DNA of 64,000 nucleotides from an uncultured Candidatus Saccharibacteria bacterium. GTDB taxonomy: Bacteria; Patescibacteriota; Minisyncoccia; Minisyncoccales; PEYH01. The translations under genes were made by a program, and so were the position numbers. Each line of letters opens with the position of its first letter. The stretch's first letter is position 1. Of this stretch, positions 872 through 58,166 are shown one piece after another. The notes below the pieces were generated by a model. That model had not been told where the DNA came from, made no database searches, and saw only the letters and a program-made list of their open reading frames with translations. The DNA is taken from positions 68,024 to 132,023 of the forward strand of contig CAZTRD010000001.1 in assembly GCA_964616145.1 (NCBI GenBank). The letters are read 5' to 3'.

Positions 872-3800
872 ATGGCAATGAATTTCTTTGAATCGGAAAA
901 ACAGATAGCAGAGTATTGGAAAGAAAACAATACATTCCAAAAGTCTTTAGAAAAAAAGGGCAAGAATTTTGTTTTCTATGAAGGCCCACCCACTGCTAAC
1001 GGAAGGCCCGGGATTCATCATATTGTTGCCAGGGCCTTTAAGGATTTAATCTGCAGATACAAAACCATGCAGGGTTTTGTGGTTCAAAGAAAAGCTGGAT
1101 GGGACACCCATGGTTTGCCAGTTGAGATAGAAACGGAAAAGAAATTGGGGCTTCGCTCTAAAAAGGAGATAGAACAGTACGGAATAGATAAATTCAATAA
1201 GAAATGCAAAGAATCGGTCTGGCAATATGTTGATGATTGGAAAGATCTGACCCAAAAGATCGGATATTGGCTGGATATGGATAATCCGTACATTACATAC
1301 GATCCTTTATATATGGAAAGCGTATGGTGGATTATCAAACAAATAGCCGATAAGGGCTTACTATATCAGGGGCATAAGGTGGTGCCATATTGTCCTCGTT
1401 GCGGAACAGCTCTTTCTTCTCATGAAGTTGCCCAGGGATATCAGACGATAAAAGAACCCTCGATTTTTATCAAATTTAGATTAAAGAAAAACAACCATAA
1501 AATATTTTCAAAATATCCTGATTTGAATTTGCTTGTTTGGACGACAACTCCATGGACGCTTCCAGCTAATGTTGCCATAGCCATAAATGAGAAGATTAAA
1601 TATATATTGATTTCTTTAAATAATGAGAAATATATTCTGGCTGAGTCAAGAAAAGAATTCATCAAGGATAAATTTGAGATTTTAGAAACATTTTCAGGAA
1701 AGGAATTAAAGGGTTTAGAATACGAGCCGTTATTTGGGAATGATTTTGATTTCGGGAAACAAAAAAACATATATAAAATACTGTCTGCTGATTTTGTCAG
1801 CACGGAAGACGGAACAGGATTGGTTCATATTGCTCCGGCATTCGGAGAAGATGATATGAATTTGATACAGGAATGGAATTCAAAGAATGATGACAAATTC
1901 CCTATCATTTTAACCGTAGATTTGGAAGGAAAATTCAAGCCAGAGATTACTAATTGGGCCGGAATGTTTGTAAAAGAAGCAGATCCATTGATCACTAAAT
2001 ATCTGCAAGGGAAGAGTAAGATATTTTTAATTCAGGAATATGAGCATGAGTATCCATTCTGCTGGAGATGTAAAACTCCTTTGCTGTATTATGCAAAAGA
2101 GAGTTGGTTTATTAAAATGAGCGCTTTAAAAGAAAAACTCCAGAAGAATAACGAGAATATTAACTGGATTCCTGGCCATGTAAAAACAGGTCGTTTCGGG
2201 GAGTGGTTGGAAGATATAAAGGACTGGGCAATTTCCAGAGAAAGATATTGGGGAACACCATTACCAATATGGAAATGCGAATGCGGGCATAAAGAAATTA
2301 TTGGTTCAAGAGAAGATTTAGCTGAACAGAAATTCAGCGATAATAAATATTTTGTCGTAAGGCATGGGCATTCTCAAAATATTGTAGAAGATTTACACTC
2401 CTCTTTCCCAGAGATGAAGGAGCTCCCTTTGACTGAAAAAGGAATTAAAGAAGTAAAGGTTATTGCTAAAAATCTAAAAAGAGAAAAAATAGATATTATT
2501 GTTTCTTCTGATATTTTGAGAACAAAACAAACAGCAGAGATTATTGCCAAGGAATTAGGATTAGAAATACAATATGACGCTCGTTTGAGAGAAACCGACT
2601 CAGGAGAATTTAACGAAAAACTTCGCAAAGATGTGATTAATTTCTTCACCCAGGAGGAAATAAACTCCCCACCCAAAAGAGCCCTAAAGAGATTTAATAA
2701 ATCCTTTCCCGGGGGAGAAACATACAGGCAAGTTAGGATAAGGCTTCTAGAGTTTTTTCGGGAAGCAGAAAAAAAATATCAGGGAAAGAATATTTTACTC
2801 GTATCCCATATCGCTTGTATATATTTAATGGAATCATCATTTAAGGGCCTGGGAGTGAAAGAAAGTGCGGATTACAGGGAAGAGTTTGATCTTAAACCGT
2901 CTGAAATTAAAAAATATGAATTTAAGGATTTTCCGTATGATGAAAATGGAGAAATAGATTTGCACAGACCATATATTGATCAGATAGAATTTAATTGCCC
3001 AAAATGTGGCAAGAAGATGAAAAGGATATCCGAAGTTATTGATTGCTGGTTTGATTCCGGTTCTATGCCGTTTTCTCAATATCATTATCCTTTTGAGAAT
3101 AGAAAGTTGATAGATAAAAAGGAACAATTCCCAGCTGATTACATTTCAGAAGGAATAGATCAAACCAGAGGTTGGTTCTATACCCTTTTAGCTATTTCTA
3201 CACTGTTAGGGAATGAATCACCATATAGAAATGTGATTGCTTTGGGGCATGTTTTGGATCAAAAAGGGCAGAAGATGTCTAAGAGCTTAGGAAATATTGT
3301 GGATCCCTGGCAGATGATAGAAAAATATGGGGCAGATGCTCTGCGCTGGTATTGTTTTACGGTTAATCAGCCAGGAGATCCTAAGCTATTCAATGAGAAT
3401 GATTTAGATCAGGCATTAAAGCAATTCCTTATGACTTTTTGGAATTGTGCTGTATTCTTAAAAACATATTCATCAGAATCAATTTCTCCAAAACCAATTG
3501 TTTCCAATATCTTGGATAAATGGATATTATCCAGATTAAACAGCGTTATTCAACAAGCCATCCTTAATCTGGATACATACGATATATCTACTGCTGGGAG
3601 ATTGATTCAAGATTTTGTTATCAATGATTTGTCTTTATGGTATGTCAGAAGATCCAGGCAAAGATTCCAACAGCCAACAAGCGGAAAGGAATTAAAAGCA
3701 TCCTGTTCCATGTTATCTTTCGTATTAATCCAAACAGCTAAGATTTGCGCTCCATTTGTTCCATTTTTAAGTGAAAGAATATATCAGGAATTGGATATGA

Positions 3801-4399
3801 TAGACAGCGTGCATTTACAGGATTGGCCAAAGATTGAAAAGAAAATGATAAATGCTGATTTGGAAAAAGAAATGGCAATAATTAGAGAAATAGCCAGTCT
3901 TGGTCTAAATCTTAGAAATCAGGCCGGGATAAAGGTAAGACAACCTTTAGGAGAGATGAAGGTGTTTGTTAAAGACAGAAAGCTTGATAGGGAATGCTTA
4001 AACATATTATCTGAAGAATTGAATGTAAAAAACATTTCAGAAGTTAAAGAAATCGTTCAAGAAAATAATTGGATTATTGGAGAAGCTTTGGGGATTAGGA
4101 TATCTTTGAATACAATAATATCAGATGAATTGAAAGAAGAAGGAACATTAAGAGATATTGTAAGGTTTATCCAAGACAGCAGGAAGAAATCAAATTGTAC
4201 TCCAAAAGACAATGTAATTCTTAATGTTGTAGTTAGCGAAACTTTAAAATTAATCTTTATCAAAAACGAGACAGAAATCCTTGCCCAGACAAGAAGCAAA
4301 GAAATTAAGTATTTTAACCAGATATCTGCCAAAACATTTGCATTTCAGCAAGAAGGAAAGATTGGAGAGGATAATGTTTGGTTGGGAATAGAGAAATAG
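872..4399 (+). CDS. ileS: Isoleucyl-tRNA synthetase, type 2, carrying a ~200-aa internal domain insertion
   Basis: 1175 aa. Class I HIGH-type motif (PPTANGRPGIHH), KMSKS (KMSKSLGN), the WISRERYWG editing/CP1 context, and Zn-knuckle CPRCG / CPKCG. Confidence 0.95.
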   Translation: MAMNFFESEKQIAEYWKENNTFQKSLEKKGKNFVFYEGPPTANGRPGIHHIVARAFKDLICRYKTMQGFVVQRKAGWDTHGLPVEIETEKKLGLRSKKEIEQYGIDKFNKKCKESVWQYVDDWKDLTQKIGYWLDMDNPYITYDPLYMESVWWIIKQIADKGLLYQGHKVVPYCPRCGTALSSHEVAQGYQTIKEPSIFIKFRLKKNNHKIFSKYPDLNLLVWTTTPWTLPANVAIAINEKIKYILISLNNEKYILAESRKEFIKDKFEILETFSGKELKGLEYEPLFGNDFDFGKQKNIYKILSADFVSTEDGTGLVHIAPAFGEDDMNLIQEWNSKNDDKFPIILTVDLEGKFKPEITNWAGMFVKEADPLITKYLQGKSKIFLIQEYEHEYPFCWRCKTPLLYYAKESWFIKMSALKEKLQKNNENINWIPGHVKTGRFGEWLEDIKDWAISRERYWGTPLPIWKCECGHKEIIGSREDLAEQKFSDNKYFVVRHGHSQNIVEDLHSSFPEMKELPLTEKGIKEVKVIAKNLKREKIDIIVSSDILRTKQTAEIIAKELGLEIQYDARLRETDSGEFNEKLRKDVINFFTQEEINSPPKRALKRFNKSFPGGETYRQVRIRLLEFFREAEKKYQGKNILLVSHIACIYLMESSFKGLGVKESADYREEFDLKPSEIKKYEFKDFPYDENGEIDLHRPYIDQIEFNCPKCGKKMKRISEVIDCWFDSGSMPFSQYHYPFENRKLIDKKEQFPADYISEGIDQTRGWFYTLLAISTLLGNESPYRNVIALGHVLDQKGQKMSKSLGNIVDPWQMIEKYGADALRWYCFTVNQPGDPKLFNENDLDQALKQFLMTFWNCAVFLKTYSSESISPKPIVSNILDKWILSRLNSVIQQAILNLDTYDISTAGRLIQDFVINDLSLWYVRRSRQRFQQPTSGKELKASCSMLSFVLIQTAKICAPFVPFLSERIYQELDMIDSVHLQDWPKIEKKMINADLEKEMAIIREIASLGLNLRNQAGIKVRQPLGEMKVFVKDRKLDRECLNILSEELNVKNISEVKEIVQENNWIIGEALGIRISLNTIISDELKEEGTLRDIVRFIQDSRKKSNCTPKDNVILNVVVSETLKLIFIKNETEILAQTRSKEIKYFNQISAKTFAFQQEGKIGEDNVWLGIEK
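2345..2950 (+). other. In-frame histidine-phosphatase (PGAM/CobC/SixA-like) domain inserted in IleRS
   Basis: YFVVRHGHSQN (RHG catalytic motif at 2360-2368), LTEKG, VSSDILRTKQTAEII, RETDSGEF, GGETY and LLVSH. The domain lies between IIGSREDLAEQ and DLHRPYIDQ, which are separated by only a short linker in type-2 IleRS as I recall it. Confidence 0.75.
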
Positions 4400-7945: not shown

Positions 7946-8695
7946 ATGAAAATACTCAGAGGAATATTTTTCCTTCTTTTTATCGTAGTAGTAATAGCCA
8001 TTGTTATCCTTGGTTATCTTGGCTTTATCCCCATCCTTTCAGATTTGATGGGTTCAACCAAGCCAAGAGATCTTGGAATTAAATACACTCAAGCTGACTA
8101 TGATTCTGCAGGGGTTAAAAATAAAGTAAAGATAATAGTTGTTGATTCTGCTCCAGATATTCAATCAAGCATAATTTGTTTTGGATCTCAGGCGATAGAA
8201 GCATCTTTCACCCAGGAAGAGCTTACAGCTAGAATCAATATGAATAGCCAGAATTGGAAATATTTTCCTGTTAAAAACGTTCAAGTGAAAATCAATCAAG
8301 ATGGAACAGCAGAAAGCTCTGGATTATTGATGATTGATAATCTGGAAGGATTTGCCCAAGCAATAGGATTTGGAGATATTGATATACAAAAGGTATTATC
8401 TAAGCTTAAATTCGTTAGAAAAGAAATTCCTTTCTATGTTAATTTCACTCCAACTGTATCAGAAGGGCAGGCTAATATTATCGTTAAGAAAGCAGAGATT
8501 GGAAGATTAGCAATGCCCCAGGATTTTTCAGAACAATACAAGCAAGAAATCAATTACTATATCAGCAGGATAATCAGTTCTTCTGCTTTCCCCGGGCTAT
8601 ACGTAACCTCTATGAATCTTGATGGGGGACAGATGAATTTTAAGGGGAGGTTGCCGGAAAACATCACTACGGCTAAAGAGATTGTTGAGTTGTAA
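7946..8695 (+). CDS. Hypothetical membrane-anchored protein (249 aa)
   Basis: N-terminal TM helix. The ORF is tightly packed after glyQS. Confidence 0.6.
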   Translation: MKILRGIFFLLFIVVVIAIVILGYLGFIPILSDLMGSTKPRDLGIKYTQADYDSAGVKNKVKIIVVDSAPDIQSSIICFGSQAIEASFTQEELTARINMNSQNWKYFPVKNVQVKINQDGTAESSGLLMIDNLEGFAQAIGFGDIDIQKVLSKLKFVRKEIPFYVNFTPTVSEGQANIIVKKAEIGRLAMPQDFSEQYKQEINYYISRIISSSAFPGLYVTSMNLDGGQMNFKGRLPENITTAKEIVEL

Positions 8696-8697
8696 AA

Positions 8698-9078
8698 GTG
8701 GAAACCCCGACGGAGCCTATCAACGTCGGGGTACTGCTATTCGCTGGGAAGTATAGCTACCAGCGCGTGAACTCTAGATCTGGCATCAGGTTTCCCTGCT
8801 ATCCCGAACGGTCCCTGTCACCCGCACAGGTTGCACTTCACGCGGACCCGTCTAGGCGTTCCAGATCTATAGGGATGGTATCCTGTACTTTCCTTTGGGG
8901 GTTACCTCCGTCGAGTTCTCGACGGGTTTTTGAGTGAATCATCCCAGGTCCTTTCGGGTCGAGGGACTATCCTCGCATATACCCATCGGTTACAGAATGA
9001 TAGGGCCATCTGTTAAATCTCAATATAAGATCTAACAACTAGCCCTATCGCCATCCTTGAATTCGTATATCAATGTGC
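8698..9078 (-). ncRNA. ~380-nt GC-rich structured RNA, unclassified. It may be a divergent RNase P RNA.
   Basis: Own minus-strand promoter and terminator hairpin (8705-8712/8724-8731, then UUUCCACUUUU on the minus strand). Many GC helices. RNase P-like strings on the minus strand: AAAGGAAAGUAC (8896-8885), CUGGAACGCCUAG, AAGUGCAAC (8838-8830) and GGGUGACAGGG. I could not trace a P4/CR-V pairing. Confidence 0.55.
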
Positions 9079-9086
9079 TGATTTGA

Positions 9087-9114
9087 AGTTTAATCATATT
9101 TAAAATCTTGTCAA
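9087..9114 (-). promoter_or_regulatory. Promoter of the GC-rich ncRNA (TTGACA-16 nt-TAAACT)
   Basis: Minus strand reads TATTGACAAGATT...TAAACT. The same TATTGACAAGATT string precedes the tRNA-like operon at 14630. Confidence 0.5.
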
Positions 9115-9171
9115 TAGCCATTTTAATTTTCTTTAATTTGAGCTATAACAAAGTATTAATTTAATGTATTT

Positions 9172-10440
9172 ATGCACAAACTATATAAGTTACAGAATGG
9201 ATTGAAGATTTTGTTAGTTCCATATACAGGCACTCAGGCAGTAGCTGTTTTTGTTTCCGCAAAAACAGGAAGTAAAAATGAAAAAAAAGAATTGAACGGT
9301 ATTTCTCATTTTCTTGAACACATGGTTTTTAAAGGAACAGAGAAAATGAAAGATCAGACAGAATTATCTGAAGCAATAGATAAATTGGGGGGAGCATTCA
9401 ATGGTTTTACCAGCGAGGAGAATACCAGCTATTACGCTAAAGTAGCTAATCAGCATCTAGAATTAGCCATTGATTGGGTTTCTCAGCTGTATTTAAAACC
9501 GATTATTCCTTCTCATGAAGTAAAAAAAGAAAAAGGCATAATAATAGAAGAGATTAATATGTATAGGGACAACCCCATGAGTTTTGTAGCCAATCTCTGG
9601 CAAGAATTGCTCTATCCTGGCCAGCCTGCTGGCTGGCCCATAGCTGGGGATAAAAAATCAGTGAATGATATTGAACATAAAGATTTGGTTAGTTATTGGA
9701 AGAATAACTATGTTGCTAATAATACTTTGATTTGTCTGGCCGGGAATTTTGATTCAAAAAAGGGATTGTCCTTGATTAAGAAATATTTTGGAAAGATAAA
9801 TACTGGAAAACCAAATATTAAGCCCAAGCTGATAGAAAAACAAAAATCCCCGGCCTTAAAGATTCATTCCAAAAAAACAGATCAAACTCATCTATTATTA
9901 GGAGTAAAAACATTTAATGTGCATGATGAGAGAAAATATCCTCTAGCCCTGTTATCAGAAACCTTAGGAGGGATGATGAGCTCAAGGTTATTCATTGAAA
10001 TCAGGGAAAAGAGAGGTTTGGCCTACTATGTAGGTACATCTACGGAAGAGAACACTGATTCCGGGTTTCTGGTAACCAGAGCTGGGGTGGAGAATAAAAA
10101 CTCATATGAGGCAGTAAAGGCGATATTAAATGAATATAAAAAAGTCAGAAAGGAAGGTATTACTTCCGAGGAATTGAAGAAAGCCAAGGACTACATCAAA
10201 GGGCAAACTGTATTAGGATTGGAATCTTCTGAGAGCTTGGCAGCTTTTTACAGCAGTCAGGAATTATCAGGAGAAAAGATTAAAACTCCCAACGAAATCT
10301 TTAAAGAGATTGATAAGATTGAAAAATCTGATATTCTTAAAGTAGCGAAAGATATTTTCCGTCCTGATAGATTGAATCTGGCAATGGTTGGCCCGATTTC
10401 CAATCAAGTTAAATTCAAACAATTATTAAAAGATTTTTAG
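9172..10440 (+). CDS. M16 family (insulinase/pitrilysin-like) zinc peptidase
   Basis: Inverted zinc motif HFLEH within GISHFLEHMVFKGT. 422 aa, typical two-domain length. Confidence 0.85.
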   Translation: MHKLYKLQNGLKILLVPYTGTQAVAVFVSAKTGSKNEKKELNGISHFLEHMVFKGTEKMKDQTELSEAIDKLGGAFNGFTSEENTSYYAKVANQHLELAIDWVSQLYLKPIIPSHEVKKEKGIIIEEINMYRDNPMSFVANLWQELLYPGQPAGWPIAGDKKSVNDIEHKDLVSYWKNNYVANNTLICLAGNFDSKKGLSLIKKYFGKINTGKPNIKPKLIEKQKSPALKIHSKKTDQTHLLLGVKTFNVHDERKYPLALLSETLGGMMSSRLFIEIREKRGLAYYVGTSTEENTDSGFLVTRAGVENKNSYEAVKAILNEYKKVRKEGITSEELKKAKDYIKGQTVLGLESSESLAAFYSSQELSGEKIKTPNEIFKEIDKIEKSDILKVAKDIFRPDRLNLAMVGPISNQVKFKQLLKDF

Positions 10441-14411: not shown

Positions 14412-14456
14412 TTGTGATATCATATAATTACCTGACACCATAAGGAGGTGATTCTA

Positions 14457-14561
14457 ATGAAATGGTGTCCTGAGAAAAGGAAAGCGTTCCCGATCCTTGA
14501 GAGAGTCGGGAATGCGCTCGTTCGTCAGTTCGCCCCTCTCGCTGGCCGGCCTTTGGGCTAG
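14457..14561 (+). CDS. Candidate 34-aa small ORF inside a GC-rich structured island (MKWCPEKRKAFPILERVGNALVRQFAPLAGRPLG)
   Basis: Perfect RBS AAGGAGGTGA 6 nt upstream of the ATG, presented in the loop of hairpin GACACCAT/ATGGTGTC. TATAAT at 14423-14428. The unit could instead be a non-coding RNA. Confidence 0.3.
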   Translation: MKWCPEKRKAFPILERVGNALVRQFAPLAGRPLG

Positions 14562-14592
14562 CCAGCGAGAGGGCATACAACCTAACTATTAT

Positions 14593-14618
14593 AAACAGGT
14601 CTTCCCTGTTTTTGTTTT
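14593..14618 (+). terminator. Intrinsic terminator of the 14.4-kb GC-rich unit
   Basis: AAACAGG-TCTTC-CCTGTTT followed by TTGTTTT. Confidence 0.7.
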
Positions 14619-14629
14619 GGGATATACTA

Positions 14630-14668: not shown

Positions 14669-14758
14669 GCCGGGGTGGTGGAAAAGGGCAGACACGCACA
14701 AGTCTTCACGATTGTGTGAGGATGATCCCTCGTGTAGGTTCAAATCCTACCCTCGGCA
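14669..14758 (+). tRNA. Type II (Leu-like) tRNA-like gene with a 10-nt anticodon loop GUCUUCACGA and no encoded CCA
   Basis: Acceptor GCCGGGG/CCTCGGC plus A73. D arm GTG-GAAAAGGGCAGA-CAC. Anticodon stem CACAA/TTGTG (14697-14701/14712-14716). Long variable arm GAGG-ATGATC-CCTC. T arm GTAGG-TTCAAAT-CCTAC. It aligns arm for arm with tRNA-Leu(CAA) at 25554-25640 except in the loop. Confidence 0.6.
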
Positions 14759-14777: not shown

Positions 14778-14847
14778 GGTGACGTAGCTCAATTGGTAGA
14801 GCACTGGGATAAATCCCGGGGGTGGGGTTCGATTCCTCCCGTCACCT
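14778..14847 (+). tRNA. Class I tRNA-like gene (Phe-like body) with a shortened 6-nt (or 4-nt) anticodon loop AUAAAU and no encoded CCA
   Basis: Acceptor GGTGACG/CGTCACC. D arm GCTC-AATTGGTA-GAGC. Stem CTGGG/CCCGG (14804-14808/14815-14819) encloses only ATAAAT. T arm TGGGG-TTCGATT-CCTCC. Total body is 69 nt. Confidence 0.55.
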
Positions 14848-17802: not shown

Positions 17803-20800
17803 ATGTGCGGAATTGTAGGATATATTGGTAAAAAAGAAGCATTGCCCATCATTATTGATGGGCTTAAGCGCCTTGAATACCGCGGATATGATTCTGCCGG
17901 TGTTGTTGTATTAGAGAAACAAGCATCCTTGGTTAAAGTAAAAGGAAGAGTAAAGGATTTAACTGATAAATTAGATGGTCAAAAGATTTTAGGAAGTTGT
18001 GGTATTGGGCATTGTTTGCCACCAAACGTTTTAATTCAGTTGGCTGATGGCAGAATTCTAGAGATTTCAAAAATTACAGATAAAGATAAAATTTTATGCT
18101 TAAATCCAAAGACATTAAAATTTGTGCCTGGGAAGGTCAAGGTTTTTAAGCACGAATCGCCAGATTATATTTATAATATCAAAACAAAGTCAGGCTTTTT
18201 AAATGCGACTGCTGCTCACAAGATGCTTATTTTCTCTGATGGAATTATTCAGAATAAAGTTGTTAAAGATATAAGGAAGGGAGATTTATTAATTTTTCCC
18301 AAACAAATAGAGATAACTGGTAAAAAGATAAATTTCCAAAAGTGTTTTGCCAAAAGATATTATGAGCTTAGCGATAGAGCTGTGGACATGATTAGGTCTG
18401 CCATAAAAGAGAAATCGTTAACCTTGTCCGAACTAGGCCGTAAGATAAAAATTAGCGATAAATATTTACGTCATATCATCAATAATGATCGAAATATCCG
18501 AGAAGATTACCTCAAAAAGATTTTATTTCACCTAAACGTCTTTTTTGATAAAAAAGAATTTGTTCCTGTAGACACGATCCATGGAAAGTTTATAAAACTT
18601 CCAGCTCAAAGCTCGGAGAAATTAATGCAGATTTTAGGATATCTTCTGGGAGATGGCACGGTTCAACCCAAGACAATAAGGTTTAAAGATTTAAATAAGC
18701 AATTATTACAACATTATCAAGGCCTTATAAATAAGGTATTCAATGTAAGGGGAAGGGTGGTATCTCAGAAAGATACTGCTGCATACCTATTAGAAGTTAA
18801 CAGTCAATATTTATCTCGTTGGCTTAAAGTTAATATTATCGACAGAAGTGATGATTTTTTTGGAGAAATCGGGAAACTACCCAACAAAGAAATAGCAGCA
18901 TTTCTAAGAGGATTATTCGATGCAGAGGGGTGCGTTAGTTTGCAATCTAAACAAATAACCCTCAGAATGACAAATCAACGATTAGTAAAAACTGTCCAGA
19001 TGCTATTGCCGCGTTTTAATATTTTATGCTCTTTCACGAAAACAACAAGAAAAAATAAAAATTGGTCAGATGTTTTTAATATCTCTATTAATAATTTCGA
19101 TGGTACTAAAAAATTCCTAGATATTGTGAGGGTTTCTTCACAAGAAAAGCTAAAAAGATGTAAGGCAATTGTAAAACAGATGGAGTTAGATCAATTAAAT
19201 TTTTCTTTTAAATATCTACCCTTTACCAAGAAAGAAATATACGAAAGATATATAAATCCTTTGAAAATTCCGCACGGGAAAATAAAAAAGTTGCTGGGAA
19301 ACGCAAACAATGATTTTCTCACTGGCAAAAAATTCAAAGAGTTGATAGATTATATTATAAAGAATTATCCCGATAAGAAGATAGAAAAAGAGCTCAAAAT
19401 GTTTTCTGAGGGAAATATTGTATTTCAGCCAGCGCAAGAGATCAAGAAAATCAAATCACAGAACAAATACTTGTTTGATATAGAAGTTTCTCCACATGCT
19501 AATTTTATTGCAGATGGTTTTCTAACTCATAATAGTAGATGGGCGACTCATGGAGAACCATCAGAGGTTAATGCTCATCCTCATTTCGATTGTAAAAAAG
19601 AGATATTTGTGGTTCATAATGGAATACTTGAAAACTACGTTTCTCTTAAAGAGAAATTAATAGAGAAAGGACATAAATTTGTATCTGAAACAGATACAGA
19701 AGTTATCGCCCATTTAATAGAGGAATTCTTTGATGGAAATTTAGAAGATGCTTTAAGACGAGCATTAAAAGAAATGGTTGGGGCCTATGCTATTGCGGTA
19801 GTTTCTATAAAAGATCCTGGGAAAATAGTTTTTGCTAAAAAATCCAGTCCATTATTGGTTGGTATCGGCGAAGGAGAAAACTTTATCGCTTCTGATGCGC
19901 CAGCCATATTAGGGAATACAAAAAAGGTAATATATTTAGAAGACAATGAATTGGGAGTAATTACTGCCAATGATTTTAAAATCATTGATTTAGAAAATAA
20001 TAGAATAGAAAAAAAGATTTCTCTTTTGGAATGGGACCTAGAGGAAGCAGAGAAAAAGGGATATCCTCATTTCATGTTTAAAGAAATAATAGAAGAAGGG
20101 GATGCAGTTAGGAATGCTTTAAGAGGAAGAATCCTTCCAGAAGAAGGAGCTATCAAATTTGGAGGATTAGAAGATATAGAAGAAAAATTAAGAAATGTTG
20201 AGAGGATTACAATTATTGCTATGGGGACAGCATATCTGGCAGGATTTGTTGGCAAGTACATGTTAGAAGAATATGCTCAAATGCCTGTTATGTTAGAGAA
20301 TGCATCTGAATTTAGATACAAAAAATCAATTATTGATAAGAATTCAGTAGTAATTGCAGTTTCTCAATCTGGAGAAACTGCAGATACTCTTTTTGCTGTG
20401 AAAGAGGCAAAAAGACAAGGAGCTTTAACCCTGGGCATTATTAACGTGGTAGGTTCCAGTATAGCTAGAGAAGTGGACGCCGGGATATATAACCATGCGG
20501 GACCAGAGATAGGAGTGGCCTCAACTAAGGCCTTTATCTCCGAGTTAGCCGTGTTTGCCCTACTATCTGTATTCTTGGGTAGACAAAGAGGCATGTCTCC
20601 TGTAATGGGCAAAAGAATCATCCAGGAGCTTAACGAGATCCCATCCTTGATAGGGGGCATATTTAAACAAGAAGATAGGATAAAAGAACTAGCTAAGAAG
20701 TACTATAAACATGAAGATTTCTTCTATTTAGGAAGGAAATACAATTATCCTATTGCCTTAGAGGGAGCATTAAAATTAAAGGAAATTTCATATATCCATG

Positions 20801-21147
20801 CAGAAGGATATCAGGCAGGAGAAATGAAGCATGGCCCAATTGCCATGATTGATGAGAATTTCCCTTCAGTTTGTATTGTCCCCAAGGATAGTGTCTATGA
20901 AAAGAATTTCTCTGGCATTCAAGAAATTAAAGCAAGAAAAGGATTAGTAATTGCTATTACTACAGAGGGGAATGATGAATTAGATAACATTGCAGATGAT
21001 GTTTTGTTTATCCCAAAAACTTTAGAAATGTTAACTCCTTTAGTTTCTGTAATTCCTTTACAGCTTTTTGCGTATCATGTGGCTGTGTTGAGGGGGAATG
21101 ATGTAGACAAGCCAAGAAATTTGGCTAAGTCGGTTACCGTGGAATAA
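17803..21147 (+). CDS. glmS: Glutamine--fructose-6-phosphate aminotransferase, intein-containing precursor
   Basis: N-terminal MCGIVGY (catalytic Cys2). Two SIS domains and a C-terminal KPRNLAKSVTVE. The exteins sum to 607 aa once the insert is removed. Confidence 0.93.
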   Translation: MCGIVGYIGKKEALPIIIDGLKRLEYRGYDSAGVVVLEKQASLVKVKGRVKDLTDKLDGQKILGSCGIGHCLPPNVLIQLADGRILEISKITDKDKILCLNPKTLKFVPGKVKVFKHESPDYIYNIKTKSGFLNATAAHKMLIFSDGIIQNKVVKDIRKGDLLIFPKQIEITGKKINFQKCFAKRYYELSDRAVDMIRSAIKEKSLTLSELGRKIKISDKYLRHIINNDRNIREDYLKKILFHLNVFFDKKEFVPVDTIHGKFIKLPAQSSEKLMQILGYLLGDGTVQPKTIRFKDLNKQLLQHYQGLINKVFNVRGRVVSQKDTAAYLLEVNSQYLSRWLKVNIIDRSDDFFGEIGKLPNKEIAAFLRGLFDAEGCVSLQSKQITLRMTNQRLVKTVQMLLPRFNILCSFTKTTRKNKNWSDVFNISINNFDGTKKFLDIVRVSSQEKLKRCKAIVKQMELDQLNFSFKYLPFTKKEIYERYINPLKIPHGKIKKLLGNANNDFLTGKKFKELIDYIIKNYPDKKIEKELKMFSEGNIVFQPAQEIKKIKSQNKYLFDIEVSPHANFIADGFLTHNSRWATHGEPSEVNAHPHFDCKKEIFVVHNGILENYVSLKEKLIEKGHKFVSETDTEVIAHLIEEFFDGNLEDALRRALKEMVGAYAIAVVSIKDPGKIVFAKKSSPLLVGIGEGENFIASDAPAILGNTKKVIYLEDNELGVITANDFKIIDLENNRIEKKISLLEWDLEEAEKKGYPHFMFKEIIEEGDAVRNALRGRILPEEGAIKFGGLEDIEEKLRNVERITIIAMGTAYLAGFVGKYMLEEYAQMPVMLENASEFRYKKSIIDKNSVVIAVSQSGETADTLFAVKEAKRQGALTLGIINVVGSSIAREVDAGIYNHAGPEIGVASTKAFISELAVFALLSVFLGRQRGMSPVMGKRIIQELNEIPSLIGGIFKQEDRIKELAKKYYKHEDFFYLGRKYNYPIALEGALKLKEISYIHAEGYQAGEMKHGPIAMIDENFPSVCIVPKDSVYEKNFSGIQEIKARKGLVIAITTEGNDELDNIADDVLFIPKTLEMLTPLVSVIPLQLFAYHVAVLRGNDVDKPRNLAKSVTVE
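18013..19533 (+). mobile_element. Intein (507 aa) with a LAGLIDADG homing-endonuclease domain, inside GlmS
   Basis: It interrupts the conserved GIGH|(S)RWATHG motif. It starts with Cys (CLPPNVLIQL) and ends ...LTHN followed by Ser+1. Block B-like TAAH. Two LAGLIDADG motifs (LGYLLGDGTV, LRGLFDAEGCV). Confidence 0.88.
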
Positions 21148-38792: not shown

Positions 38793-38821
38793 TTGACGAA
38801 TACAATATAGTATGCTATGGT
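38793..38821 (+). promoter_or_regulatory. Promoter of the 38.8-kb GC-rich island (TTGACG-17 nt-TATGGT)
   Basis: Good -35/-10 spacing immediately after the comEC stop. Confidence 0.5.
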
Positions 38822-38852
38822 ATGGATACATGGGGGAGAGGAGGATGGTATC

Positions 38853-39056
38853 ATGCCCAGAGGACAAGGAAACAAATCCAAGCCGGGCCCCAAGAAGCCG
38901 CCCGACAAGCTATTGATCTACATCCCGCAGTCGAAGGTTGCGCGGCAACCTGTCGAGCGGCTGATGAAGATCGGCGCGAAAAAGGATCGGTCCGTCAGCT
39001 ACCTCGTCGTCGAGGCCATTCTGCAGTACCTCGACCGTGAGGAGAACAAGTCGTAG
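38853..39056 (+). CDS. Ribbon-helix-helix (CopG/Arc-like) DNA-binding protein, 67 aa, GC-rich island gene
   Basis: SD GAGGAGGA 7 nt before the ATG. Lys/Pro-rich tail, then a beta-strand (LLIYIP) and two helices (VERLMKIGAKK, SVSYLVVEAILQYLDRE). Confidence 0.65.
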   Translation: MPRGQGNKSKPGPKKPPDKLLIYIPQSKVARQPVERLMKIGAKKDRSVSYLVVEAILQYLDREENKS

Positions 39057-39088
39057 CTCGTGAGAGCTACAAGAAAGGAGGTGGTCTC

Positions 39089-39109
39089 ATGAAGACGGGG
39101 CCGCCGTAA
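39089..39109 (+). CDS. Candidate 6-codon mini-ORF MKTGPP-stop
   Basis: Perfect RBS AAAGGAGGTG 6 nt upstream. It ends in Pro-Pro-stop. It lies between two hairpins and the island terminator. Confidence 0.25.
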   Translation: MKTGPP

Positions 39110-39140
39110 CAAGCTGTACATTGGAGAGATCAGGCTCTCC

Positions 39141-39186
39141 GGGGGACCGGTGCCCGCATGCACTTCAGGTCCCCCTCATCTTTTTT
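39141..39186 (+). terminator. Intrinsic terminator of the 38.8-kb island
   Basis: GGGGGACC-19 nt-GGTCCCCC followed by TCATCTTTTTT. Confidence 0.7.
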
Positions 39187-39230
39187 AAATCAAGAAACTC
39201 TGATAGAATTCAATATATTAAACAATAACA

Positions 39231-49335: not shown

Positions 49336-49337
49336 GG

Positions 49338-49360
49338 AAAAGGGGTGGTTGGCCCCTTTT
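49338..49360. terminator. Bidirectional intrinsic terminator (clpB on +, island unit 3 on -)
   Basis: AAAGGGG-TGGTTGG-CCCCTTTT with A/T runs on both sides. Confidence 0.7.
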
Positions 49361-49425
49361 CTGTTTGAGAGGTCGGTATGTACGAGCTTGTTAATCCCTG
49401 CACCTCCTTTAAAGGTACTGCTTGC

Positions 49426-49536
49426 CTAACGCCCAGAACGCTGACAAACGATAAGCCAGGAAGTTCGTGGTCTTGGTAAGATGTGCCACCAATTCCATCT
49501 TCTTGGCCGCCGCTGCCTGCTTCTGGTCCTTTTCAT
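49426..49536 (-). CDS. Candidate 36-aa Arg/Trp-rich small ORF (MKRTRSRQRRPRRWNWWHILPRPRTSWLIVCQRSGR), island unit 3
   Basis: Perfect RBS AAGGAGGG (49550-49543) 7 nt before ATG 49536-49534. TATAAT at 49570-49565. An overlapping frame also encodes MELVAHLTKTTNFLAYRLSAFWALGKQYL. The coding status of both is unproven. Confidence 0.25.
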   Translation of the reverse strand: MKRTRSRQRRPRRWNWWHILPRPRTSWLIVCQRSGR

Positions 49537-49586
49537 CTGTGTCCCTCCTTACGGGTAGGTGTTTATTATATATCATAGTTTCTAGT

Positions 49587-49795
49587 AAAAAACAAAGAAA
49601 CCGACCAGAGAATGGTCGGGAAAGAGCATGTGTCAAGGATGGAGACCGCGGTGGTATCGTTAGTTCTCCTCCGCGGCCTCACATCCTCTCCGCAAGGACA
49701 CAAGCAAACCTTGCGGTCTAACAACCCCTCGCCTCTTTCCCTCTCGCCCGTGAGAGGGTCATCTAGTGGAGGGGTAGGGTCTTACTTGTTGTTAT
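49587..49795 (-). ncRNA. GC-rich structured transcript, ~200 nt, unclassified (island unit 2)
   Basis: Minus-strand hairpins CCCTCTC-ACGGGC-GAGAGGG, CCGCAAGG-11 nt-CCTTGCGG and GGCCGCGG-19 nt-CCGCGGTC nested in AGGATG/CATCCT. It ends in terminator CCGACCA-TTCTC-TGGTCGG-TTTCTTTGTTTTTT (49620-49587). The 5' end is uncertain. Confidence 0.45.
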
Positions 49796-49825
49796 CTTCT
49801 ACCTACTTCTATGATTTGTCAATGT

Positions 49826-50006
49826 TTTAAAAGCAAAAGAGCCGACCACGAATGTGATCGGTTCTCGGTTGGCGCCCGTAAGGGCAAAGAACATGAGCGG
49901 ATAGGTCCGCCACCTGGAGGAGCTGCCGAAGCAGCCCCTCCTAAGTGGTTTAGTCGTGCGCCCCCGCACGGCCAACTCCCCTCTCTGCCATAGAGAAAGG
50001 AAGGTC
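49826..50006 (-). ncRNA. GC-rich structured transcript, ~180 nt, unclassified (island unit 1)
   Basis: Multi-stem junction closed by GTTGGC/GCCAAC. It contains GTGCG-GGGG-CGCAC, an 11-bp GGAGGGGCTGC-TTCG-GCAGCTCCTCC, CGGA-CCTA-TCCG and GCCC-TTAC-GGGC. Terminator CCGATCAC-ATTC-GTGGTCGG-CTCTTTTGCTTTT (49861-49826). Confidence 0.5.
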
Positions 50007-50012
50007 ATTATT

Positions 50013-50042
50013 ATTTTACTATCTTTGTTTACTTACAGTCAA
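50013..50042 (-). promoter_or_regulatory. Promoter of island unit 1 (TTGACT-18 nt-TAAAAT)
   Basis: Minus-strand -35 at 50042-50037 and -10 at 50018-50013. Confidence 0.5.
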
Positions 50043-50103
50043 CATTGTTTTCCACAGTTTTCTTCTTTGAAAAAAATAATATATTGGATATAATAAAAGA
50101 TTC

Positions 50104-57831: not shown

Positions 57832-58006
57832 ATTGATCGACCTATATAGAGGATCCCGGCATCATTTGTGCATAGTAACTAAATATGGCAAAAGGAAGGA
57901 TAGGGCCTGGAGATATAATGATATTTGTCATCCTTCAATAAAGTACCATTTCGTTGTACTATGATGGTGTTTTTTGCTTAGGTTGAAGTAAAGAGAAAGG
58001 AGAAGA

Positions 58007-58117
58007 ATGGACCTGGATCTCAATCTCGCGATGGATGGTTGGTGGGCTTTGATCAGGGTTTCCCTGTTCTTTGCCTCTGCCTGGCTGGGTTGGAAGGAGG
58101 TGAACTACCGCTCCTGA
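58007..58117 (+). CDS. Candidate 36-aa hydrophobic small protein (MDLDLNLAMDGWWALIRVSLFFASAWLGWKEVNYRS), GC-rich island
   Basis: RBS AAAGGAGA 5 nt upstream. One predicted TM helix flanked by Trp residues. A strong terminator follows directly. Confidence 0.35.
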   Translation: MDLDLNLAMDGWWALIRVSLFFASAWLGWKEVNYRS

Positions 58118-58133
58118 CATCTATTGCTTCACC

Positions 58134-58166
58134 GAGAAAGGCTACCGCTGGTAGCCCTTCTCTTTT
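58134..58166 (+). terminator. Intrinsic terminator of the 58-kb island
   Basis: GAGAAAGGCTACC-GCT-GGTAGCCCTTCTC followed by TTTT. Confidence 0.7.

Follow-up and report, generated by a model that had tools for sequence, protein, structure and literature searches.

A short intergenic region in the 64-kb stretch of DNA analysed here (the window) carries, with a probability of about 60%, a stand-alone and dispensable gene for a structured noncoding RNA (ncRNA) of ~385 nt, located on the minus strand at 8694–9084. The RNA would belong to a small, clade-restricted family in which the core varies by lineage and the alleles are exchanged between strains. The evidence for this reading consists of an excess of stable structure, a bias of that structure towards one strand, a frame of sequence and hairpins homologous among relatives, covarying hairpins, presence and absence of the element between sister lineages, and the replacement of one allele by another. 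Judging by its sequence, the window is a chromosome segment of the Patescibacteria (candidate phyla radiation, CPR) of the Paceibacterota/Nealsonbacteria type. The M16 peptidase encoded at 9172–10440 is 91% identical to the M16 of a 'Candidatus Paceibacterota' metagenome-assembled genome (MAG), and the 75 syntenic loci all derive from CPR MAGs; related loci are designated below by numbers with the prefix L. Nearly all window genes lie on the plus strand, and nearly all are housekeeping genes. The element occupies a gap of 476 nt (8696–9171) flanked by two plus-strand open reading frames (ORFs), the M16 gene and an upstream 249-aa ORF (7946–8695), which has no Pfam match and one homologue labelled YpmS by the Joint Genome Institute (hereafter the ypmS-like gene). 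An earlier note on this DNA had proposed either a strongly divergent RNase P RNA or a different large structured RNA; the second proposal is supported by the strand-specific excess stability, the tetraloops and the homologues with covarying hairpins described below.

The element is distinguished by its base composition, with 54–56% GC at 8700–9000 versus ~33–36% in the surrounding DNA and ~36% in the genome. The minus strand folds at −146.1 kcal/mol (z −5.1; 0 of 100 shuffles as stable), compared with −130.4 kcal/mol (z −2.3) for the less stable plus strand, which bears out the earlier description of a structured, GC-rich sequence of ~380 nt. The predicted minus-strand fold comprises long-range helices with pair probabilities of at least 0.9, and two of its hairpins are capped by GAAA (GNRA) tetraloops. 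The sole long ORF in the element, a 79-aa frame on the plus strand, was left uncalled by gene finders on contigs of the same strain and showed no homologue in a translated search, which included an attempt to catch spurious ORFs in homologous elements. As the earlier note had supposed, this frame is judged not to be a gene. The parts of the element are as follows.

9109–9114, minus strand: −35-like hexamer TTGACA, the same in L085
9087–9092, minus strand: −10-like hexamer TAAACT, TAAGAT in L085; the hexamer spans the left boundary of the inserted block
9065–9084, minus strand: 5' leader with a 4-bp mini-hairpin AUCA/UGAU
9059–9064, minus strand: 5' strand of stem A (GAAUUC), predicted to pair with 8769–8774 (GAGUUC), probability 0.91
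8999–9049, minus strand: H3, a 51-nt hairpin with an AU-rich tip, pair probabilities 0.94–1.0; the best-conserved structural element
8880–8998, minus strand: central domain closed by AUUCUGUA/UACAGGAU, from the predicted fold and the nhmmer alignment to L085
8775–8869, minus strand: 3' domain closed by a 9-bp stem UAGAUCUGG/CCAGAUCUA, from the predicted fold
8742–8765, minus strand: hairpin Hp4, CGCUGG-UAGCUAUACUUC-CCAGCG, followed by AAUAGCAG (8741–8734)
8694–8732, minus strand: intrinsic-terminator-like hairpin ACCCCGACG/CGUCGGGGU with the tract UUUCCACUUUU, abutting the stop codon of the convergent ypmS-like gene
8698–9091: block missing in relatives with an empty site, boundaries uncertain by about ±2 nt owing to A/T runs
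8698–8937, plus strand: 79-aa ORF, judged not to be a gene

The promoter-like sequence TTGACA-16-TAAACT, already pointed out in the earlier note, spans 9114–9087. Its −35-like site sits in flank DNA and reads TTGATA or TTAACA in genomes without the RNA; the promoter is credible only because it is conserved in L085 as TTGACA-16-TAAGAT. Downstream of the leader, stem A closes the entire core. The central domain holds a single-stranded AAAAACC, then the hairpin Hp2 (8925–8908), followed by GGAGGU (8909–8904), with G8909–G8908 common to the stem and to GGAGGU. The 3' domain contains the block AGACGGGUCC (8853–8844), a hairpin UGCA-ACCUG-UGCG (8835–8823) and a GAAA-capped hairpin (8798–8787). At the 3' end, the terminator hairpin (8732–8704) has 9 bp and a pair probability of 0.99. 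The hairpin and tract that the earlier note took for a terminator are thus present, but an automatic terminator scan missed the minus-strand hairpin, whose loop has 11 nt, and instead called Hp2 on the plus strand.

Homologous RNAs are found at the same site in relatives, recovered via homologues of the flanking proteins. In L085, a 470-nt gap at the same position contains a minus-strand RNA of 383 nt (z −6.1), which is ~20 kcal/mol more stable than its plus strand and has minus-strand hairpins capped by UUCG loops. With all filters off (--max), nhmmer matches L085 to the window over ~200 nt (E 0.002–0.04). The similarity is unevenly distributed: leader and H3 reach z 5.8 and the 3' end z 3.6, whereas the core, at z 1.4, is no better than shuffles, and no signal emerged when the cores were scanned for identity along gap-free diagonals. 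The leader 17-mer AAAUCAGCACAUUGAUA (9084–9068) is identical in L085, where the flanking sequence is conserved too. H3 comprises 18 column pairs common to the window and L085, all of them (100%) paired in both and none broken; four pairs differ at both positions and three at a single position. Shifting the partner by 1–3 columns as a control lowers the pairing to 31–47%. Stem A is replaced in L085 by another stem of 7 bp, UGCGGAA/UUCCGCA. Two independent and agreeing assemblies, L159 and L160, supply the 3'-terminal 209 nt of a third allele. The arrangement AAAAACC-hairpin-GGAGGU recurs across the three alleles with three different Hp2 stems, GGAGGU being present in the window RNA and L085 and reading GCGGGU in L159. 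The block AGAyGGGyC is common to the window, L085 and L159, and all three alleles continue with the 3' strand of the closing stem and then Hp4, which bears (A/U)AGCAG in its loop or 3' tail; at the Hp4 position, the hairpins of L085 and L159 are built on other stems and carry (A/U)AGCAGGA in their loops. The terminator likewise forms in all three alleles with three different stems. Consequently, Hp2, Hp4 and the terminator are hairpins in 3/3 alleles with differing stems. The shared frame, identical in site and strand, comprises the promoter, AAAUCAGCACAUUGAUA, H3, the closing stem, Hp2-GGAGGU, AGAyGGGyC, Hp4-AGCAG and the terminator. Provisionally, the window RNA, L085 and L159/L160 appear to form a clade-restricted family of structured ncRNAs that lacks an Rfam model. 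A more distant relative (L087, 70% protein identity) has a different structured RNA of ~220 nt at the site (3257–3490, minus strand; z −7.7); its promoter is of the extended −10 type, its 5' hairpin is perfect, and a GAGGUGGC block recalls L085. Only a terminator is found at the site in L086, and L088 has no gap.

The element is present in some lineages and cleanly absent from others. Contigs of the same strain carry an identical copy. In L001, the closest genome in the GTDB set, the gene order is the same, the gap measures 80 nt, and ~394 nt (window ~8698–9091) are missing. The empty 80-nt site occurs in the sister lineages L001/L158 and L127–129, with L158 of the L001 type and L127–129 representing a second type of empty site. 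The tree obtained from four-fold degenerate sites is (window,(L085,L001 group)), with identities of 0.55 for window–L085, 0.52–0.54 for window–L001 and 0.67–0.68 for L085–L001. A single loss is the simplest explanation for an element that the window and L085 lineages carry and the L001 group lacks. The clean empty site in sister lineages implies that the gene is dispensable. The ancestral arrangement of the clade, seen in most relatives, has an aminoacyl-tRNA synthetase gene directly adjoining or overlapping M16; both the ypmS-like gene and the RNA were therefore added in particular lineages.

The alleles have diverged far more than their surroundings. Between L085 and L159, the flanking gene differs at 3 of 846 positions (99.6% identity), and its four-fold sites are 100% identical. 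Across the same junction, the RNAs share 79.5% identity in the columns that align, contain numerous indels relative to each other and end in different terminators. Since the RNAs are only ~80% identical where the flanks are 99.6% identical, simple vertical drift does not account for the sequences. Furthermore, all three flank mismatches are confined to the final 65 nt of the gene, adjoining the RNA, and this gradient towards the RNA points to homologous recombination that imported a divergent allele. Divergence between the cores of the window and L085 likewise exceeds that at neutral sites in their flanks. Nevertheless, the two cores have kept 50–56% GC and a strongly negative z, whereas neutral genome sites are AT-rich, which argues for selection on the fold. 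Several assemblies are broken here: L130 has a scaffold gap of 100 N (3253–3352) exactly at the RNA locus in one MAG, the contigs L132 and L079 end at the block edge, and L159 and L160 end inside the block. These breaks are consistent with co-existing alleles.

Taken as a mechanism, the gene would be transcribed from its own sigma-70-type promoter to its intrinsic terminator, antisense between the ypmS-like and M16 genes. The gene would have a fixed frame consisting of the promoter, 17-nt leader, H3 and stem A, then Hp2, Hp4 and the terminator, with the short blocks AAAAACC, GGAGGU, AGAyGGGyC and (A/U)AGCAG predicted to be single-stranded. Within this frame, the helices and most of the core sequence vary by lineage, and divergent alleles are swapped by homologous recombination through the conserved flanks. 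With moderate confidence, the function may depend on the fixed frame and a few exposed motifs, namely GGAGGU and (A/U)AGCAG / AAUCAGCA, the latter of which occurs in the leader and again near the 3' end. With similar confidence, the product may be regarded as a stand-alone, non-essential, trans-acting structured RNA rather than a housekeeping ribozyme. Should transcription and function be borne out, the RNA would count among the few large RNAs outside the housekeeping set that turn over rapidly in a minimal genome. Its evolution is unusual for a folded RNA, in that the site is occupied or empty between sister species and the alleles differ by 20% and are rich in indels, yet GC content and stability are kept.

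Several points weigh against this reading. Transcription of the minus strand is predicted from signals in the DNA: promoter-like matches occur at 1 per kb versus 2.6 expected from shuffles, that is, below expectation, and the U-tract of the window terminator is interrupted. Beyond the hairpins, the fold is a minimum free energy prediction on three alleles, one of them partial (L159/L160), and the same sample makes the definition of the family provisional. The covariation statistic for H3, computed on two sequences, is weak (34 of 500 shuffles reach it), and RNAalifold gives little on the poor alignment that MAFFT produced for the 3' half of the three alleles. Trans action of the folded RNA, as a protein-binding scaffold or a regulator, is a further step that we infer, and the hairpins may instead have a role at the DNA level. 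Pattern scans of metagenomes and viral contigs revealed no further members: the leader 18-mer gave 36 unrelated coding matches in a metagenome contig collection without L085's own contig, pairs of RNase P-like blocks gave three chance matches in phage coding sequence among viral contigs, and nothing relevant was found there with the leader 17-mer or the L085/L159 block pair.

A bolder extension, tentative and rather unlikely in our estimation, holds that the element represents an undescribed class of large (~385 nt) CPR RNA that constitutes a conflict locus, with a fixed frame for expression and folding and a core that is replaced wholesale and often lost. The occupied and empty sites together with the divergent alleles resemble, we infer, the outcome of conflict-type or frequency-dependent selection. 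If true, a conflict locus would suggest RNA-based immunity, anti-defence, a self/non-self function or a selfish ribozyme in minimal genomes.

The alternative that survives best, although improbable, is that the element is non-autonomous mobile DNA, such as a palindrome-associated transposable element (PATE) of the IS200/IS605 type, a miniature inverted-repeat transposable element, an integron-like cassette or an integrated remnant, in which the hairpins would be recognition sites in single-stranded DNA and the RNA would be functionless. The clean presence or absence at one site, with an AA/TT ambiguity of at most 2 nt, would fit such an element, as would the conserved ends around a variable middle and the character of H3 as a long imperfect palindrome. 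Unrelated GC-rich inserts, with ORFs of 188 aa and 129 aa, also lie upstream of M16 in L040 (3222–3843) and L060 (3449–3838), and foreign DNA seems to have landed repeatedly at this junction. Against mobility, there are no terminal inverted repeats, and BLAST and nhmmer searches with the element detected no other copy in the window, in the 75 syntenic CPR loci, in ~1.3 Mb of related loci or in phage and plasmid records. The left and right hairpins are unrelated, and the right one varies among alleles, unlike the ends of IS200/605 elements; with a single copy and no HEARO match, the element thus does not resemble a PATE or an omega-RNA (HEARO, TnpB right-end RNA). No transposase, integrase, TnpB/IscB, reverse transcriptase (RT) or Cas gene occurs in the 64 kb. 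Inspection by eye likewise led to the rejection of IS200/605 ends, integron attC core sites, Helitron/IS91 ends and att-type direct repeats. The strand bias in folding and the GNRA or UUCG loops on that same strand, in both the window RNA and L085, indicate an RNA, and the flank mismatches clustered beside the locus fit homologous recombination and not transposition. A retron is similarly unsupported: no window ORF has an RT domain, retron a1/a2 repeats were rejected by eye, and a closing stem is present but the long hairpin is situated 5', not 3'.

It is considerably less probable that the element is an mRNA or a toxin–antitoxin-like unit encoding a small peptide. Candidates are a 34-aa minus-strand ORF at 8942–8838 behind AAAGGA, or translation from the GGAGGU block found in the window RNA and L085 (GCGGGU in L159), and other GC-rich islands in the window do carry small ORFs behind strong Shine-Dalgarno (SD) sequences (14458-, 38853–39056 and 49536-). 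Sequence inspection of the window RNA, L085 and L159, however, revealed no start codon at a usable distance past this block, and no ORF is conserved among the alleles. The predicted peptides are hydrophilic, unlike type I toxins, the 79-aa plus-strand ORF lacks a homologue, and stable helices dominate the region. An equally low probability applies to a cis-acting part of the plus-strand operon, either the 3' untranslated region (UTR) or terminator of the ypmS-like gene or the 5' UTR or a riboswitch of M16. Both neighbouring genes lie on the plus strand, and a terminator-like hairpin with a T-run is present on that strand at 8907–8926. Nevertheless, in both the window RNA and L085, folding of the plus strand is 16–20 kcal/mol less stable than that of the minus strand, sister genomes have the same two genes without the block, and no riboswitch family matched.

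It is very improbable that the element is a group I-like self-splicing intron without an ORF, or a selfish ribozyme of another kind, that homes to the site. The patchy occurrence of divergent alleles at one identical site does resemble homing, GNRA loops and conserved short blocks are present, CPR genomes are rich in introns (PMC8172020), and the glmS gene of the window has an intein. Against this, the minus strand has no host gene or exon, the block comes with a −10 element and a terminator of its own, models of Intron_gpI and group II gave no match at E ≤ 10, and no P3/P7 pseudoknot or R/S elements of group I introns could be placed by manual inspection.

The least probable identity, to which we assign almost no weight, is that of a bacterial RNase P RNA, permuted or strongly divergent, that Rfam thresholds miss. 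Lui et al. (2021) reported that CPR RNase P RNAs often fall below Rfam cut-offs and can lack P12–P14 and P18, although they are still recovered using RF00010 at lowered thresholds (PMC8172020). The strings on which the earlier note based this identity are all present: the 'P3-like' hairpin, which is Hp2, at 8925–8908, AAAGGAAAGTAC at 8896–8885 within the central domain, CTGGAACGCCTAG at 8864–8852, AAGTGCAAC at 8838–8830, GGGTGACAGGG at 8823–8813 and ACAGATGGCCCTATC at 9013–8999; those labelled 'P8', 'AAGUGCAAC' and 'GGGUGACAGGG' are located in the 3' domain. Four of these RNase P-like strings follow the order of E. coli with similar spacing, relative to the M1 RNA sequence, and Rfam found no rnpB elsewhere in the 64-kb window. 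The meaning attached to the strings is not supported, however, since the homologous RNAs of L085 and L159 lack GGAAAGUAC, AACGCC, AGUGCAAC and GGGUGACAGGG. The RNase P-like strings form no part of what the alleles conserve. A GGAAAGUCC-like string in L018 lies in an ordinary cobalamin riboswitch, and such short strings are therefore unspecific; that region had been considered as a candidate RNase P RNA and was discarded, as were GC islands upstream of M16 in other CPR loci, which are protein-coding inserts or unrelated. The L018 riboswitch (1231–1361) scores 40.6 bits, above the gathering score, and was found only in E-value mode. L018, a complete Nealsonbacteria genome (CP179889), also has two paralogous GC-rich elements on the plus strand (960–1170 and 3800–3975), which end in a T-arm-like GGGUUCRARUCCUACCGCC and were called by neither ARAGORN nor Rfam; one lies directly upstream of M16.

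Structural considerations lead to the same conclusion. In RNase P RNA, conserved region I (CR-I; GAGGAAAGUCC..) is expected to pair with CR-V (ACAGAA..GGCUUA), with a bulged U. Here, as the earlier note had conceded, neither CR-V nor a P4 partner of the CUGU-CUU type occurs 3' of the core, and the ACAGAU string is buried inside H3. The CR-I-like AAAGGAAAGUAC is followed by GUACAGGAU, which pairs with AUUCUGUA ~100 nt upstream (probability 0.94). The 3' domain is a three-way junction with a long arm before the GAAA hairpin, which is the wrong order for P7-P8-P9-P10. RF00010, RF00011, RF00373 and all other RNase P models gave no match at E ≤ 10, either on 8500–9300 (801 nt) or on the 406-nt element alone (8690–9095). 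At the same threshold and on the same sequences, the remaining families proposed for comparison were also negative, including transfer-messenger RNA (tmRNA), signal recognition particle RNA, 6S and large ncRNAs, as were the intron, HEARO and riboswitch families. ARAGORN likewise found no tmRNA in the window, L085, L087 or L018. On the whole window, Rfam listed three tRNAs at the gathering score and nothing else credible at E ≤ 1. The listing of weak matches works, as a partial RF00010 match of 14 bits (E 0.49) was obtained on the other strand of L087; from the relation between score and E-value of that match, the RF00010 score of the element is estimated to lie below ~6 bits. At this site, the only one judged, the element is not kept in close relatives in the manner of an essential, slowly evolving gene. 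The empty site in sister lineages and the 20% divergence of alleles whose flanks are 99.6% identical are incompatible with an essential, conserved ribozyme. A tempting mis-annotation is thereby removed: CPR RNase P RNAs are hard to detect, yet the element is not one of them.

Several additional features were observed in the window. A 770-nt gap after clpB contains, on the minus strand (49336–50045), three tandem units, each with a promoter-like site and a terminator. Units A (~50005–49842) and B (~49790–49601) have 55–60% GC and z values of −4 to −6, unit C (49575–49337) has a strong SD and a 36-aa Arg-rich ORF, and none of the three matched Rfam at E ≤ 5. An island at 38806–39202 (55–61% GC), between comEC-like and dgkA genes, is probably foreign DNA; its 67-aa ORF (38853–39056) has a strong SD, resembles a ribbon-helix-helix protein by eye and has no Pfam match. 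Another island (57999–58164; ~50–55% GC, z ~−2.5) lies between an AAA_14/DUF4143 gene and a minus-strand ORF and has no Rfam match. A GC-rich unit at 14440–14620 (z −5 to −7), which includes both a small ORF and a long, perfectly paired hairpin, precedes two adjacent tRNA genes (14669–14758 and 14778–14847), both with abnormal anticodon loops. The first has a long variable arm and the loop region CUUCACG, for which ARAGORN calls a 4-base anticodon 'ttca', and may read UCA/UGA; the second has a 6-nt loop, AUAAAU, and is called with a 2-base anticodon. Since the window holds several more GC-rich, strongly folded and unclassified units, the phenomenon may be general in the lineage. Among the protein-coding genes, glmS (17803–21147) is interrupted by the intein, which has a LAGLIDADG endonuclease domain, and the isoleucyl-tRNA synthetase gene (872–4399) bears an inserted histidine-phosphatase (His_Phos_1) domain.

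Among known systems, type A RNase P RNA (RF00010), together with the diverged CPR forms of Lui et al. (2021; PMC8172020), resembles the element in its size of ~380 nt, high GC content and dense structure in an AT-rich CPR genome, in its GNRA-capped hairpins, and in the strings like CR-I, P8, J11/12 and J12/13, which stand in the right order here. The element differs in having no covariance-model match, no P4 partner or CR-V and another order of helices. In addition, RNase P RNA is an essential, slow-evolving, single-copy housekeeping RNA, whereas the RNA described here is dispensable and hypervariable. Another analogy is offered by the large orphan ncRNAs OLE, GOLLD, ROOL, HEARO and raiA, detected as long GC-rich intergenic regions (GC-IGR/DIMPL searches; PMC6429828, PMC8723152, PMC11109978). 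The element shares with them the long GC-rich intergenic region in an AT-rich genome, the large size, the intricate folding and the patchy distribution. It matches none of those Rfam families, is so far limited to one small Paceibacteria clade, and undergoes a far faster sequence turnover.

Small RNAs that sequester proteins or serve as scaffolds, such as those of the CsrB/RsmZ type, 6S and Ms1, keep their architecture as the sequence drifts. The likeness lies in the stand-alone gene with promoter and terminator, the length of 200–400 nt, the many stem-loops, the low sequence conservation and the repeated single-stranded motifs, here (A/U)AGCAG and AAUCAGCA. The present RNA lacks the GGA-in-loop repeat pattern of CsrB and the central bubble of the 6S type, and RNAs of the CsrB/RsmZ, 6S and Ms1 kinds are usually not present or absent between sister species. 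A further parallel is provided by homing introns and inteins and by capsule or restriction-specificity loci, which are variable loci exchanged by recombination. They have in common with the element a single site that is occupied or empty, divergent alleles between near-identical flanks, and a gradient that starts inside the flanking gene. The element differs from them in that no exon context, endonuclease or protein product accompanies it, and the unit that varies is a folded RNA gene.

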